From NCBI GenBank assembly GCA_002429595.1, contig DJAM01000086.1, positions 4,277 through 68,276 of the forward strand: a stretch of 64,000 nt of DNA. The letters are read 5' to 3'. Both the position numbers and the translations under genes were made by a program. Under the pieces are notes generated by a model. It made no database searches and was not told the origin of the DNA. It saw only the letters and a program-made list of their open reading frames with translations. Positions 9,671-58,778 of this stretch are shown one piece after another. Positions within the stretch are counted from its first letter, which is position 1, and each line of letters opens with the position of its first letter. Source of the stretch: Coxiellaceae bacterium UBA6002. Lineage in GTDB: Bacteria > Pseudomonadota > Gammaproteobacteria > UBA6002.

Positions 9671-10442
9671 TGTGCTTCGTCATCTAAATGTAATTATTAC
9701 TCGGCCAGAAGCCTCCTCTTCAAATCTTAAAGAAAAAATAATTTTGTCAGAAGGCCAAGCAATACTCTTTCCAACGATTAAAATTTGTCCGTTCACGATC
9801 AATGCAGATGAAGTTCGAGATCGCAAAATCAATGATTATGATCTGATTATCTTTACGAGTCGCAATGCGGTGTTGGCGATCACAAAGATCTTATCGCAGA
9901 TAAAAGGTCCCAAAGTATTGGCCATTGGTCCTAGCACTGCTGCAACGTTACTGCAACAGGGTGTTTTCGTATCAGACATCCCCATAGCAAAATTTGATAG
10001 CGAGCATTTATTAGAATTGCCAGTTTTTGCAGACGTCAAGGGTAAACAGATTTTGATTGTGACGGGAGAGGGTGGCCGAGAGCTTTTAGGCCAGACTTTA
10101 AGAGTCAAGGGTGCCAAGGTTGTTAAGTGGCGAGTATATCGCCGAGAACTGCCTGCTATAAGTCAGGAGGCGGCACAGGCATTAACTAAAATCACTAATC
10201 CAGTCATAGTGACTACCAGTGGTGAGGGATTAAGGAATTTAGTAGCCATAATGACCAACTTTAATTTTGAAATTTGGTTATTTGAGTGCAGAGTACTGGT
10301 GATTAGTCAACGTATGAAGGTATTAGCGCAAGAGCTAGGGTTCAAGTCAGAGCTATTATTGGAAGCTAATAATGCGACAGATGATGCTATTTTAGAGTGC
10401 CTAATAAAATGGTATTCTATACCCGTAGCGGGTGATTTCTAA
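9651..10442 (+). CDS. hemD: uroporphyrinogen-III synthase
   Basis: Position after hemC, ~260 aa, HemD-like N-terminus (LNVIITRPE). The last 8 codons and the stop codon lie inside the repeat element at 10417. Confidence 0.75.
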   Translation: MRILMSDVLRHLNVIITRPEASSSNLKEKIILSEGQAILFPTIKICPFTINADEVRDRKINDYDLIIFTSRNAVLAITKILSQIKGPKVLAIGPSTAATLLQQGVFVSDIPIAKFDSEHLLELPVFADVKGKQILIVTGEGGRELLGQTLRVKGAKVVKWRVYRRELPAISQEAAQALTKITNPVIVTTSGEGLRNLVAIMTNFNFEIWLFECRVLVISQRMKVLAQELGFKSELLLEANNATDDAILECLIKWYSIPVAGDF

Positions 10443-10600
10443 GCGTTGGGGTCGACATCTTACTTCGGTCTTGACTTTTTTTCATCACAAAAAATGCTCG
10501 AAAGACAGTAGGTATTCCTGTGCTTTTTTGTGATGAAAAAAAGCCAAATCTCTCGCAAGCTGTCAACCCTAACGCTTAGAAATCACCCGCTACGGGTATA
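10417..10600. mobile_element. Miniature inverted-repeat element, copy 1 (~184 bp, ~40-bp terminal inverted repeats TATACCCGTAGCGGGTGATTTCTAAGCG..., inner CATCACAAAAAA/TTTTTTGTGATG palindrome)
   Basis: ~88% identical to the segment at 57440..57621 by eye alignment. Terminal inverted repeats (TIRs) differ by about 2 mismatches. No coding capacity. Confidence 0.6.
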
Positions 10601-13385: not shown

Positions 13386-13394
13386 CTAAAAACT

Positions 13395-13468
13395 GTCATT
13401 CCCGCGAAGGCGGAAATCCATCTCAGAAGCAGCTGAAAGAGTGGATTCTCGCCTTCGCGGGAATGACA
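13395..13468. repeat. Repeat family B hairpin (GTCATTCCCGCGAAGGCGGAAATCCATCTC ... GAGTGGATTCTCGCCTTCGCGGGAATGAC); probable terminator
   Basis: ~30-bp imperfect inverted repeat around a 14-nt loop, read directly. Its core recurs at 33789 and 36419. Confidence 0.5.
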
Positions 13469-13569
13469 AGCCCCGATTCGCTGGAAAATCATTGCCTGAT
13501 TTTCGGCGTCGGGCGTTTTATAAATTCACTATAATTAAAACTCAAGTGAGTTTATAAGTGAAATTACCA

Positions 13570-21108: not shown

Positions 21109-21135
21109 GTATACCCGTAGGGGATGATTTTAGGA
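21109..21135. repeat. Solo terminal inverted repeat of the MITE family (GTATACCCGTAGGGGATGATTTTAGG) between the rho stop and the ubiD start
   Basis: 26/27-nt match to the left TIR of the 57440 copy. No second arm or internal part is present. Confidence 0.5.
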
Positions 21136-23575: not shown

Positions 23576-23597
23576 ATTATTTTCTCTAACATTTTTA

Positions 23598-23692
23598 TTC
23601 CCTCTCCCGCTTGCGGGAGAGGGCTAGGGTGAGGGTGCTTCCCGATACCCCCTCACCCCAACTCTCTCCCCCAAGGGGGAGAGGGAGGGTTG
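23598..23692. repeat. Repeat family A cluster: three consecutive hairpins (CCCTCTCCCGC-TTGC-GCGGGAGAGGG; GGGTGAGGG..CCCTCACCC; CTCTCCCCC-AA-GGGGGAGAG)
   Basis: Read directly. The same three modules occur in a different, nested order at 53101..53220. Confidence 0.5.
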
Positions 23693-33695: not shown

Positions 33696-33788
33696 CATTG
33701 GGTTGTAAAATCGTTACACTTTCTGTTTGAACCGATCGTAATCCTGTTGGTGACTCGTGCCCATTCCCCAGAGCTGCTACCAAGATGG

Positions 33789-33851
33789 GTTCCCGCCTTC
33801 GCGGGAATGACACAGCTGCGCGGGAATGGCACAGCTAGACGGGAATGACAG
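33789..33851. repeat. Repeat family B, partial copy, followed by three degenerate tandem units (CGGGAATG[A/G]CACAGCT) upstream of metK
   Basis: GTTCCCGCCTTCGCGGGAATGACA, then CAGCTGCGCGGGAATGGCACAGCTAGACGGGAATGACAGG, read directly. Confidence 0.45.
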
Positions 33852-36372: not shown

Positions 36373-36447
36373 CCTCCCTCTCCCTTTCGTGTGTAGGAGA
36401 GAGAGTAAATGTATGTAATGTCATTCCCGCGCAGGCGGGAATGACAA
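36373..36447. repeat. Two hairpins between ahcY and petA: CTCCCTCTCC..GGAGAGAGAG (family-A-like) and the perfect GTCATTCCCGC-GCAG-GCGGGAATGAC (family B)
   Basis: Read directly. The 11-bp-stem perfect palindrome is at 36420..36445. Confidence 0.5.
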
Positions 36448-36479
36448 GAAAGGATTCAGAAAGAATATTGAGGAATTTC

Positions 36480-53100: not shown

Positions 53101-53220
53101 AACCCCCTCACCCCAACCCTCCCCCACGAAGTGGGGGAGAGGTTGTAAAAAATTCTAAGTTCTTCGCCTCTTTTATTCCCTCTCCCGCTTGCGGGAGAGG
53201 GTTAGGGTTAGGGTGAGGGT
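53101..53220. repeat. Repeat family A cluster, nested arrangement: CCCTCACCC [CTCCCCCAC-GAA-GTGGGGGAG] ... [CCCTCTCCCGC-TTGC-GCGGGAGAGGG] ... GGGTGAGGG
   Basis: Read directly. Same modules as 23598..23692. Lies between rsmA and uspA. Confidence 0.5.
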
Positions 53221-54965: not shown

Positions 54966-57437
54966 TTACCCCTTGAAATTATCTACATATCCAAAAATGC
55001 TACTGGTTAATAAACCACCCGGATCACTTATACCAACATTACCCAGGCCTTTAAGTTGGAGTTGTACATAAACATTAGTTTGGTAGGTGGTAAGGTCATT
55101 TATATTTTCTGCAGTGAGTATACGACTTGCCACAAACCTTACAGCCCAACAACAACTATCGTATTGGAAGCCATAGAAGTAAGCTTGGTTATGACCATGG
55201 CTTAAATTGTAATTCCAACTCGCTAAAGCTTGCCAGTGATCGTTTAATTGCCACGCAGTGGCTAAGCTAATGCGATTTAAATTACCTTTGCTGGTATTTA
55301 GCGCGTAAGTCGTGAGTGTATCGCCTTTTCGAACAAAGTCATATCCTATGTTAAAAATATGTTTGCAGTCGGGATGATAGTGGAAGCGGATCGATGCATT
55401 ATTTAGTCCTTGATCATAAGGGTTATAGGCGGCGGCTGCCACGCCATTCCATGCATCATTGAAATTGTAATTCAGCTCTGCAACCAAGGGTGAGAGTGTT
55501 TCATTAACATAAAAATCGTTGCGTTGATCCGAGGTTAGACTAACTCGTGGTGGTTGTAAATATAGGGTTTGACCGATGCTGGCGCGGAAGCGTTGAAAAC
55601 CGGTACAACTATTTAAGAATCGAGTTGTTAGGGCAAACGAAACTTGATTCGCATCACCTAAGCGGTCATAACCGACAAAACGATTGATTCGAAATAATTG
55701 CTCAAAACCAAAAGAAGGCAGCGTGGTGTCAAAGAGTGGGAAATTATTTTGATTTTGATAGGGTACGTAGAGATAAAAAACCCGGGGCTCGAGGGTCTGA
55801 GTATAGTGGGCATATTGTCTTTCAAAATAAATTCCAGTATCGATTGAGAAAATCGGTAAGACACGGGATACATGTTCTTGTTGCCAATTATGTAAATCAT
55901 AAAAAGTAGCATCAAGGAGAAGTTTTGGCGTAAAAAAACTATAAGCTGTGATGAAGGGGATGCTCAAACTGGGCTGCAGATGTAAACGTTGTCCTGTTAC
56001 GGCAATTGGTGTATTGAAAATATTGTTTGGAATCTCGAAATATTGGTACTCACCATTGATTTGATACGCTAAGCGATTGGGAAATTCAGGGAAGTCACTT
56101 CGAAAAAATAATTGAGGCAGTCGAGAATATTGGTTAAGGATAGGTTGTTGATTGATAGGATGTAAGGTTTGAAACGTTTGTAAACGGCCTAAAAACCGCC
56201 AACAATCCGATGCATAATTAACCTCAGCTTGATTAAGAAGTTGATCTGTACTGCTGTAGAATGGATTATAAGCAAAATTTTGAAGGTAGTAGTCATCTGT
56301 CACGTAACTTAAATTAACATTACCCCACCAGTGCTCATTCCAAACTGTACTATCGTTGAAAGAAATTAATCCCCGGCTATTGCTTGAATGCGCGATTCGG
56401 TCCAGAAACGGTTGCGTAGCTGGATTAACACCATAGACTTGAGCGGCTGTTCTTCTAAATTCGGCAAAAACAATATCGTAGGGTAAAAATTCTAGATTAA
56501 AGTTACCTGCGCTAGTGCAAGTAATATAGCGAAAATGTGCCTCCAATTGAGCACCACGACGATAAATAAAATTCGGACTGATCGTCGCATCAAAATTAGG
56601 CGCTAAATTGAGATAATATGGAAAATTAATGTGAAAGCCATTGGTATTAGAATAGCCAGCAGTTGGGAATAAAAAACCAGTTTTTCGTCTTTTATCAATA
56701 GGGAACGAAAAATAAGGTATCCATAGCAATGGTAAGTCATGCACCAATAAGAAGGTGTGGTATGCTTCACCCCGTCCTTGATCTCTATCAAGATGCAATC
56801 GCTTAGCAATCACTTGCCAGGTCGGTCGTATGGGAGGGCAAGTGGTATAACTCGCGTCAGTGAGCAAAATATCACTATTTGAGCGTCGTATAACGCGCTT
56901 AGCCTGTCCCCAGGAATTCAATATCTCTCGTCGAGTGGGTTTGACCAATCGATAAAGCGCCTCATCCAGTTGCACGTATTTTTCCTGCAAATCCATAAAG
57001 ACCACATCGGATACTAAATGCTTCCCTGATTCGTAATAATGGACATTACCTTGAAGCAGAATCTGGCGAATTTCTTTCGTAGTGGGATCGCGGTACAGAG
57101 TCGCCTTGTCAGCGGTCATCTTGCGGCCGGGTTGAGTCAGTACAACATTACCTTCTATTTGTGAAGTACCTTCGGCTGAATAAGAGAGAGTTCTATCCGC
57201 GGTAATCGTGGTTGGTGCTTCATCAAGATCAACGGGGTTAGCACAACTTAGTACGATCGCGGGCTCTTGATAAACCCCTCCGCAAAGGTTTTGACCGGTT
57301 GGCACCCATCCTAAAGTATTGGCGATTTCATGAGGAGGTAGTGTATTTCGAATCAAACATGGAAATGCCAATGCAGGTAGACAAAAACTACTGCCGAGTA
57401 AAACAAACAGCTTTTTAAGGGAATTATATTTCGTCAC
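54966..57437 (-). CDS. lptD: LPS-assembly outer-membrane protein LptD
   Basis: 823 aa, signal peptide, OstA-like N-terminal domain and a large beta-barrel. Adjacent to surA. GTG start at 57437, directly abutting the repeat element. Confidence 0.85.
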   Translation of the reverse strand: MTKYNSLKKLFVLLGSSFCLPALAFPCLIRNTLPPHEIANTLGWVPTGQNLCGGVYQEPAIVLSCANPVDLDEAPTTITADRTLSYSAEGTSQIEGNVVLTQPGRKMTADKATLYRDPTTKEIRQILLQGNVHYYESGKHLVSDVVFMDLQEKYVQLDEALYRLVKPTRREILNSWGQAKRVIRRSNSDILLTDASYTTCPPIRPTWQVIAKRLHLDRDQGRGEAYHTFLLVHDLPLLWIPYFSFPIDKRRKTGFLFPTAGYSNTNGFHINFPYYLNLAPNFDATISPNFIYRRGAQLEAHFRYITCTSAGNFNLEFLPYDIVFAEFRRTAAQVYGVNPATQPFLDRIAHSSNSRGLISFNDSTVWNEHWWGNVNLSYVTDDYYLQNFAYNPFYSSTDQLLNQAEVNYASDCWRFLGRLQTFQTLHPINQQPILNQYSRLPQLFFRSDFPEFPNRLAYQINGEYQYFEIPNNIFNTPIAVTGQRLHLQPSLSIPFITAYSFFTPKLLLDATFYDLHNWQQEHVSRVLPIFSIDTGIYFERQYAHYTQTLEPRVFYLYVPYQNQNNFPLFDTTLPSFGFEQLFRINRFVGYDRLGDANQVSFALTTRFLNSCTGFQRFRASIGQTLYLQPPRVSLTSDQRNDFYVNETLSPLVAELNYNFNDAWNGVAAAAYNPYDQGLNNASIRFHYHPDCKHIFNIGYDFVRKGDTLTTYALNTSKGNLNRISLATAWQLNDHWQALASWNYNLSHGHNQAYFYGFQYDSCCWAVRFVASRILTAENINDLTTYQTNVYVQLQLKGLGNVGISDPGGLLTSSIFGYVDNFKG

Positions 57438-57439
57438 TG

Positions 57440-57621
57440 TATACCCGTAGGGGATGATTTCTAGGTGTTAGGAAGGACATCTTACTTCGACCTTGGCTTT
57501 TTTTCATCACAAAAAATGCTCGAAAGACAGTGAGTATTCCTGTGCTTTTTTGTGATGAAAAAAAACCAATCTCTCGCATGCTGTCCTTCCTAACACCTAG
57601 AAATCATCCCCTACGGGTATA
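57440..57621. mobile_element. Miniature inverted-repeat element, copy 2 (182 bp, perfect 37-bp TIRs TATACCCGTAGGGGATGATTTCTAGGTGTTAGGAAGG)
   Basis: Perfect terminal inverted repeats read directly. The interior is ~88% identical to copy 1 at 10417..10600. Confidence 0.6.
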
Positions 57622-57743
57622 TTGTTCTTTATATCCGTGTGATGGCCTCAAATGGTACTCACTTAAAAGATATTTGGCTACACACCGATTCAAATCAACG
57701 AAAAAAAACAGTACAGTACAGTAAAACAAAAAGGCGAAAGACG

Positions 57744-58778
57744 ATGAACTTAGCGCAAAGAACAACAAATCTAACAGCGTGGGTTAACAAATTTATCCAA
57801 GTTAAAGATTTGTCCCCTATTCCCGGCGATGCGAGTGCTCGACGGTATTTTAGGGTTACCACGAATGAAACCTCATTAATTGCAGTTGATGCTCCACCTC
57901 AAACAGAAAAAAATCCAGCCTTTGTGGCTGTCGCCAAATCTATGGCGGCACAAGGTTTGCGAGTGCCAGACGTCATACAAGTCGATTACGAGCAAGGTTT
58001 TTTGCTGCTTAGCGACTTAGGAAATACTCAGCTTTTATCGGTACTGAACGAACGCAACGTCGAGCAACATTATGATCAGGCTTTCCAAGATCTCATTAAA
58101 TTACAAACATGTAGTCTGGATCAGGATTATCAATTACCTCATTTTGACGCTTCATTTATTTTAGAAGAATTAAATCGTTTTCAGGATTGGTATCTAGATC
58201 GTCACTTAAATCTGACGTTATCTTCAAAAGAACAACTATTGTTACAAGAAACCTATCAATTCTTAATCGATCAAGCGGTAGCACAACCACAAGTATTTGT
58301 TCATAAAGATTACCACTCGCGTAATTTAATGTTGCAAGCGGATGGCCAATTAGGAATATTGGATTTCCAAGATGCAGTGCTAGGACCGCTTAGCTATGAT
58401 CTTACTTCTTTGCTTCGAGATTCTTATGTTCAGTGGCCCTGCGAGCAAGTTTATCGATGGGTTGCAGAGTTTTGGCAACTGTTGCCAAACCAACACCGAC
58501 AAAGCCAGTCATATGAACAATTCCAACATCAATTTGACTGGATAGGTTTGCAACGTCATATTAAGAACTTAGGTATTTTTGCTCGCTTATTTCGTCGAGA
58601 TAACAAAGATAATTATTTAAAAGATATTCCAACCTTACTTGATTACGTTTTAAAAGTTAGCGATCGATATCCCGAACTTCGGGCTTTTAATAATTTTCTA
58701 ACTACAAGAGTATTGCCACATGAGAGCCATGATATTAGCGGCCGGGCGAGGAACGCGATTGCGTCCGTTGACGGATGA
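57744..58778 (+). CDS. amgK: aminoglycoside-phosphotransferase-fold sugar kinase, AmgK-like (anomeric MurNAc/GlcNAc kinase)
   Basis: PIPGDASARRYFRV N-terminal motif and the catalytic HKDYHSRNLM loop. Divergent from lptD and followed by a MurU-like gene, as in Pseudomonas. The start is moved to ATG 57744 (RBS AAGGCGAAAG); the track start lies in the repeat. Confidence 0.6.
   Translation: MNLAQRTTNLTAWVNKFIQVKDLSPIPGDASARRYFRVTTNETSLIAVDAPPQTEKNPAFVAVAKSMAAQGLRVPDVIQVDYEQGFLLLSDLGNTQLLSVLNERNVEQHYDQAFQDLIKLQTCSLDQDYQLPHFDASFILEELNRFQDWYLDRHLNLTLSSKEQLLLQETYQFLIDQAVAQPQVFVHKDYHSRNLMLQADGQLGILDFQDAVLGPLSYDLTSLLRDSYVQWPCEQVYRWVAEFWQLLPNQHRQSQSYEQFQHQFDWIGLQRHIKNLGIFARLFRRDNKDNYLKDIPTLLDYVLKVSDRYPELRAFNNFLTTRVLPHESHDISGRARNAIASVDG

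Follow-up and report, generated by a model that had tools for sequence, protein, structure and literature searches.

Comparison with relatives points to a recent insertion of a hairpin-forming MITE directly upstream of lptD in Coxiellaceae bacterium UBA6002

Introduction

Correia elements (CREE/NEMIS) of Neisseria give rise to promoters and are found 5' of genes (PMC2649163, PMC10969869), and the mRNAs that contain them are subject to RNase III cleavage, the symmetrical repeat ends being cleavable (PMC2649163), as also described for mtrCDE (PMC10969869). Their core ends in CCGGTACGG and TCAGGACAA and holds the IHF site CTTCAGCACCTTA (PMC2649163). In functional terms, we consider them the closest known system to the element described here, which lies directly upstream of lptD in a 64,000-nucleotide stretch of DNA (the window) from Coxiellaceae bacterium UBA6002. 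Like CREE (~100 to 160 bp), this element is small and non-coding, with terminal inverted repeats (TIRs), an apparent TA-type target duplication and ends reading TATA…, and it further shares with them the location 5' of a gene, a "Black"-type layout in which the repeat holds the -35 and the flank supplies the -10, and the occurrence of leftover end fragments (PMC2649163, PMC10969869). In contrast to these likenesses, neither the repeats nor the core resemble those of CREE in sequence, the repeats measure 40 bp versus 26 bp in CREE, and the host belongs to another lineage; neither the two CREE core ends nor the CREE IHF site was found in the element, and no IHF consensus is present in either of its two copies in the window.

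Within Coxiella, the QMITE2 repeats of C. burnetii, compared here by description, resemble the element in size (150 to 190 bp), in the energy of their hairpin (about -113 kcal/mol) and in carrying GTAG (PMC5896051). In addition, QMITE2 occupies intergenic sites and the 3' ends of genes with short C-terminal overlaps, comparable to what we observe for copy 1 of the element at hemD (PMC5896051). The two are set apart, again by description, by their direct repeats, which are variable and 7 to 11 nt long in QMITE2 and consist of TA only here.

With respect to structures in mRNA leaders, the adhE leader of E. coli is activated by RNase III, the ribosome site being unmasked after cleavage. The ERIC/IRU palindromes of enterobacteria are co-transcribed and control mRNA decay (PMC10969869). 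Unlike the element at lptD, the ERIC/IRU and adhE leader structures are native or long-resident. To our knowledge, no structure of the ERIC/IRU/adhE type has been described as a recent insertion lying 2 nt from an essential gene's start codon.

Results

The TIRs of the copy at lptD (copy 2) are perfect, with all 40 positions complementary, and make the element a near-perfect palindrome (Table 1). As the sequence-only reading had proposed, it sits between the GTG of lptD and the amgK-like gene, and NCBIfam matches confirm the neighbors, with LptD, SurA and RsmA on one side and, diverging on the + strand, the AmgK-like kinase and MurU on the other. Its immediate adjacency to the lptD start codon likewise held up, with just the two nucleotides "tg" (57438-57439) separating the GTG (57435-57437) from the element. 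The GTG and the signal peptide are kept in two relatives, and the reading frame upstream runs into an in-frame TAA 10 codons away with no start codon in between; as judged from these alignments and frames, the GTG is the true start of lptD.

Table 1. Coordinates of the element, its copies, the neighboring genes and the candidate signals in the window.
Feature	Position	Strand	Description
MITE copy 2	57440..57621	.	182 bp, counting the TA on either side; element proper ~57442-57619
Left TIR, lptD-proximal	57440..57479		outer 20 nt form the present lptD leader, …AAAUCAUCCCCUACGGGUAUACA-GUG
Right TIR	57582..57621		complementary to left TIR (40/40)
Inner stem-loop	57498..57564		19-bp stem TTTTTTTCATCACAAAAAA / TTTTTTGTGATGAAAAAAA, 29-nt loop; nearly invariant between both copies
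ORF inside and beyond copy 2	57424..57579	-	51 codons, lptD-sense; SD-like AGGAAGGA, ATG at 57579 inside the element; stop 11 nt past the lptD GTG
Candidate internal promoter toward lptD	57479..57507	-	-35 ATGAAA (57507-57502), 17-nt spacer, -10 TAAGAT (57484-57479)
lptD	54966..57437	-	823 aa, GTG start at 57435-57437, signal peptide
Native lptD-amgK spacer	57622..57743	.	displaced, intact; block 57622-57683 common to L001 and L002
Candidate native lptD promoter	57680-57652	-	TAGCCA-17-TACCAT (PWM scan)
Candidate amgK promoter	57689-57717	+	TTCAAA-17-TACAGT; native DNA, kept in L001, >65 nt from the element
amgK-like kinase	57744..58778	+	true CDS of 344 aa; homologues start at ATG 57744
MITE copy 1	10418..10600	.	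183 bp, between hemD and hemX
Solo terminal repeat	21110..21130	+	21 nt, identical to copy-2 end; whole rho-ubiD spacer, 4 nt before ubiD ATG

The repeat sequence reads TATACCCGTAGGGGATGATTTC… and the ends carry TACCCGTAG…, with GTAG at position 8 of each arm, and the inner 19-bp stem is A/T-rich. A 37-nt arm probe gave two matches versus none expected from shuffles, and the 203-nt region folds into a single hairpin of -109.8 kcal/mol on the + strand and -119.4 kcal/mol on the - strand (z = -17.6 and -19.9, respectively, relative to shuffled controls). With a longest ORF of at most 64 aa in 182 to 183 bp, the element is non-coding, and a ribosome reading inward from either end would meet stops in all three frames within 25 nt (TAG, TGA and TAA/TAG; in the left arm TAG, TGA and TAG). 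The ORF at 57530..57724, which had been described as a spurious in-frame contribution of the element, does start inside it but does not share the reading frame of the kinase (57639 - 57530 = 109). The lptD-sense frame of 51 codons is possibly a uORF coupled to lptD, or else a mere spurious frame.

The sequence-only reading had also suggested comparing this intergenic region among close relatives, and there the site is empty. In L001, the closest relative recovered (from a JGI metagenome, with 84% amino acid identity in AmgK), the lptD-amgK spacer is 123 bp long, uninterrupted and matched end to end by 57622-57743, with a single TA at the insertion site, and the more distant relative L002 has the same empty site. 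Filled sites read TA-[TACCCG…CGGGTA]-TA and empty sites a single TA (L001 for copy 2, L037 for copy 1), for which a 2-bp TA target duplication is the simplest reading, based on two sites that each show a few additional small differences on one flank. Furthermore, three other relatives, L046, L047 and L048, lack the element at all three sites that hold it or its remains in the window (copy 1, copy 2 and a solo end), and ~65 kb of DNA from relatives contained no copy of it. Both junctions, the one facing lptD and the one facing amgK, recur in independent assemblies from at least four sequencing runs (L034, L035, L036, L039 and L041). The junction contigs end exactly 30 nt into the repeat, on the lptD side in L039 and on the amgK side in L034, L035 and L041, which is expected because a k=31 assembler meets a perfect inverted repeat at this point. 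The insertion at lptD appears to be fixed in the sampled population. From the comparison of filled and empty sites, we take the element to be a true, recent insertion into a TA 2 to 4 nt upstream of the lptD GTG.

The element had been thought to replace the promoter-proximal and 5'-UTR region of lptD, and this claim has to be withdrawn, as the insertion is clean, with the entire 123-bp native spacer of L001 still there next to it, colinear and ~97% identical in the conserved block. Across three species this block reads …GTAGCCAAATATC-TTTAAGTGAGTACCATTT…GGATATAAAGAACAA, and it contains the candidate native lptD promoter (Table 1). Read in this way, the element has displaced the lptD control region by 182 bp rather than destroying it. 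A similar correction applies to the kinase, whose 35-codon N-terminal extension had been ascribed to the element: these codons, at 57639-57743, are spurious and lie wholly in the native spacer, outside the element. Most of this extension is contained in a database entry (P0001, 378 aa). We also observe that the upstream start codons of the kinase stem from a 3-nt insertion (GTG-ATG-G) by which the native spacer differs from that of L001. Since the candidate amgK promoter belongs to the native DNA, is kept in L001 and is separated from the element by more than 65 nt, amgK probably keeps its native promoter and is unaffected by the element.

Two further proteins show faint matches to eukaryote-like domains, namely, a 427-aa protein at window positions 60213-61496 with a faint Peptidase_C48 match and a protein of the relative L046 (12551-13609) with a faint F-box match; such matches hint at a host-associated lifestyle.

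With the control region displaced, the predicted accessibility of the ribosome site of lptD depends strongly on where its transcript begins. Opening positions -18 to +12 around the GUG is computed to cost 32.5 to 35.1 kcal/mol when the entire element is in the leader, 8.3 kcal/mol for a transcript starting near 57472 and 5.7 kcal/mol for the native lptD leader of L001; behind the solo repeat, the corresponding value for ubiD is 9.6 kcal/mol. By standard thermodynamic models, the penalty of ~27 kcal/mol would be incompatible with useful initiation. LptD is encoded by a gene that is essential in other Gram-negative bacteria and is assumed to be so here. As lptD is also intact in all sampled strains, the productive lptD mRNA would, with good support from these models, lack the distal arm. 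The lptD leaders of the relatives are A/U-rich and combine the absence of a Shine-Dalgarno (SD) sequence with a GUG start. The present lptD and ubiD leaders are almost identical to each other (aaatcatcccctacgggtatac(a)GTG versus aaatcatcccctacgggtatac(tg)ATG), each with GGGU as a weak SD 5 to 6 nt ahead of the start.

A consensus promoter scan of the lptD-element region, using a 9-of-12 criterion, found no promoter. Scoring with a position weight matrix (PWM) ranked the candidate ATGAAA-17-TAAGAT inside the element in the top three of the region, at 7.1 bits and the 99.6th percentile of window positions, a level at which about three sites are expected in the region by chance. The same candidate is present in copy 1. 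From copy 2, it is predicted to start transcription near 57472, and the resulting leader would hold the proximal arm alone. In addition, the repeat end shows a layout like that of the Correia "Black" promoter, with a -35 TAGAAA, a 16-nt spacer and a -10 made from the terminal TA plus flank. It scores 9/12 at the left end of copy 1 and reads TAGAAA-16-TATTGT at the amgK-side end of copy 2. Such an end-located promoter was considered for lptD as well and rejected: unlike in CREE, the geometry cannot serve the adjacent gene, with the start codon overlapping the would-be -10 and the start site falling inside lptD.

Within the 64 kb we find two full copies and one solo end. Copy 1 is 89% identical to copy 2 over an aligned 130 nt, and its own arms are 86% complementary over 77 nt. 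The repeats of the two copies differ at eight positions, and at six of these eight, pairing is kept by changes in both arms. These compensating changes point to separate source elements, to selection on the stem or to hairpin-templated repair, among which two sequences cannot separate. Copy 1 is missing at an empty site in L037 (positions 1881-1891; run SRR28285590), a contig that matches the window at 99.6% identity along 10.4 kb, and this strain still has copy 2. Where present, copy 1 gives hemD its last 7 to 8 codons and its stop (…SIPVAGDF*), the relatives having short tails of their own, and it opens an in-frame GTG/ATG (10530) that makes hemX longer by 34 codons. In L037, hemD and hemX are fused in a 660-aa ORF (666-2648), and we rejected the idea that copy 1 split an ancestral fusion of this kind, as hemD (255 aa) and hemX are distinct genes in three relatives. 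The fusion is peculiar to L037; it is due to one missing T in GCTTAAGG just before hemX, which may be a genuine variant or an error of sequencing. In positions 1-223 of a public Logan contig, L036, the sequence enters the element from the left flank of copy 1 and leaves it on the right-flank side of copy 2. The switch falls within the 35-nt core common to both copies; this contig is a k-mer chimera and calls for caution with assemblies of this genome.

The solo end lies in front of ubiD, which is co-oriented with rho and 23 nt behind it. It is fixed in four runs, and the closest relative has an unrelated rho-ubiD spacer of 29 nt. This arrangement fits an insertion at TA followed by loss of the remaining element. 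A contribution of the repeat to the C-terminal tail and stop of rho was considered and discarded, as the relative has the same tail, which is native. In a more distant relative (L047, 2710-2856; L048, 105-251), the rho-ubiD spacer is 147 nt long and another palindrome, CTTCCTGTCATCCTAGCGTTCGCTAGGATGAAGG, lies in it; small repeats seem to have landed in this spacer repeatedly.

The window contains other small repeats. Short palindromes of the form TGTCATTCCCGC-N4-GCGGGAATGACA, unrelated to the element studied here, occur at 13394-13479, 33772-33823 and 36423-36457, and presumably resemble REPs of the dRS3 / IS110-target type. A second REP-like family with CCCTCTCCCGCTTGCGGGAGAGGG and flanks of the GGGTGAGGG type occurs at 1654-1738, 23593-23679 and 53102-53215, and one copy of the CCCTCTCCCGCTTGCGGGAGAGGG family lies directly downstream of the lptD-surA-rsmA gene row.

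The search for relatives of the element beyond its own species was largely empty-handed. The 19-base arm pattern ACCCGTAGNGGNTGATTTCTA gave one chance match, in a Rufibacter coding region, among 185,579 reference genomes, a set in which the presence of a Coxiella burnetii genome is assumed. The repeat end had no match in JGI metagenomes, and the element had none in viral contigs or, by blastn, in plasmids. An inner-stem pattern did hit 30 loci, all of which were discarded as unrelated terminator-like hairpins. At gathering thresholds, Rfam returned no match for the element; below threshold it returned generic miRNA-precursor hairpins only, the best at 48 bits versus a cut-off of 195. For the open frames of the element, a database of 5.8 billion protein sequences held no protein with shared words. 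No partner transposase was found, and scans of the reference genomes, metagenomes and viral contigs with the arm pattern gave no true match that could point to an autonomous insertion sequence sharing these ends. A literature search on MITEs together with lptD found nothing relevant. Judged by its sequence features, among them a size within the ~100 to 400 bp of bacterial MITEs, the element is a non-autonomous, TA-targeting, hairpin-forming transposon (MITE). The family is new and unseen outside its own species at the stringency applied, and its kind, the MITE, is well known.

Discussion

The overall explanation that we favor, which we hold to be about evenly balanced between right and wrong, combines a MITE insertion, a displaced control region and a start of lptD transcription inside the element. 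A transcript from the native promoter would carry both 40-nt arms, paired to within 3 nt of the GUG, and the ribosome-binding window would be locked. Transcription of lptD may instead now start inside the element at the candidate ATGAAA-17-TAAGAT, giving a leader of ~34 nt with the proximal arm only, in which the arm end CUACGGGUAUACA would act as a weak initiation region of the Shine-Dalgarno type. For the internal start itself our confidence falls slightly short of even. The fate of the element at its different sites may be informative here: reduction to one arm at ubiD and preservation in full at lptD is what we would expect if the hairpin is harmful in read-through and harmless with an internal start. 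Against the internal promoter, its conservation between two copies that are 89% identical carries no weight, and in copy 1 it would face antisense into hemD.

As an alternative to the internal start, lptD could be read through from the native promoter, with RNase III cutting the 40-bp duplex and the freed downstream fragment being translated, a route that we regard as possible and still rather unlikely. The conserved native promoter block is intact and adjacent, so that read-through is expected, and in the case of no internal start the hairpin block demands processing. The perfect 40-bp stem, moreover, resembles reported substrates (PMC2649163; mtrCDE, PMC10969869), and the six differing repeat positions that are still paired within each copy fit selection on pairing. 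However, after cleavage the outer 11 to 15 bp near the GUG could remain paired in trans and cover the ribosome site, a processed 5'-monophosphate end usually shortens the life of an mRNA, and the loss of the distal arm at ubiD suggests that the hairpin is burdensome when read through.

Considerably less probable is a situation with no rescue of this kind at all, in which LptD is either made at a very low level that is tolerated, or made when the first-round, co-transcriptional ribosome on the uORF (57579-57424) melts the arm and re-initiates at the GUG. The SD-less native lptD leader and GUG start of the relatives suggest a low demand for LptD, and copy 2, unlike copy 1, has a AGGAAGGA-N4-AUG frame whose stop comes shortly after the lptD start. 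On the other hand, the penalty given above would be expected to lower initiation by several orders of magnitude; with respect to coupling, the SD of the uORF sits in the perfect stem itself, its start is absent from copy 1, and the frame is intrinsic to the element and may be meaningless.

Two further alternatives concern the nature of the element rather than its bypass. It is improbable that we are dealing with a palindrome of the REP/REPIN type that a RAYT tyrosine transposase mobilizes, or with a relative of the Coxiella QMITE2, which contains a GTAG REP. REPINs consist of short GTAG-headed palindromes in inverted pairs; here GTAG stands at position 8 of each arm, the 182 bp and the fold energy match those of full-size QMITE2 (150 to 190 bp, -113 kcal/mol; PMC5896051), and there are further REP-like palindromes in the window; however, the TA found on both sides when filled and singly when empty indicates a target duplication, which is absent from REPINs and makes a REPIN origin unlikely, while the 7- to 11-nt direct repeats of QMITE2 are missing here, as is the 19-base arm pattern from the 185,579 reference genomes, with C. 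burnetii assumed to be included. That repeat-induced mis-assembly placed the element next to lptD and amgK is scarcely credible despite the obvious k-mer chimera L036, given that independent assemblies of several runs end 30 nt into the repeat on both sides, as k=31 predicts, and that lptD and amgK are adjacent in all relatives.

Returning to the favored explanation of an internal start, a more far-reaching version of it would see the element as a cassette that is tolerated anywhere, with ends that stop all frames within 25 nt, an outer 20 nt that serves as a portable initiation region (at lptD and ubiD) and an interior, outward-directed promoter, lptD having been rewired off its ancestral promoter. 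We regard this version as speculative and on balance doubtful. If it is true, the compensating changes in the arms would reflect selection on the stem or hairpin-templated repair.

What distinguishes this case is the position at the lptD start with a hairpin that needs to be bypassed; the family itself embodies no new principle. A hairpin of about -110 kcal/mol placed 2 nt from the start of an essential gene, with an empty-site relative for comparison, is a natural experiment, and this position together with the empty-site relatives leads to a clear, testable prediction on 5' ends. Furthermore, elements of this kind break k-mer assemblies, yield chimeric contigs and mislead gene callers (the extended amgK, the hemD tail and the hemX extension). 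Whichever rescue route applies, be it an internal start, RNase III or coupling, it would show how small genomes can accommodate selfish palindromes even where regulatory space is tightest.
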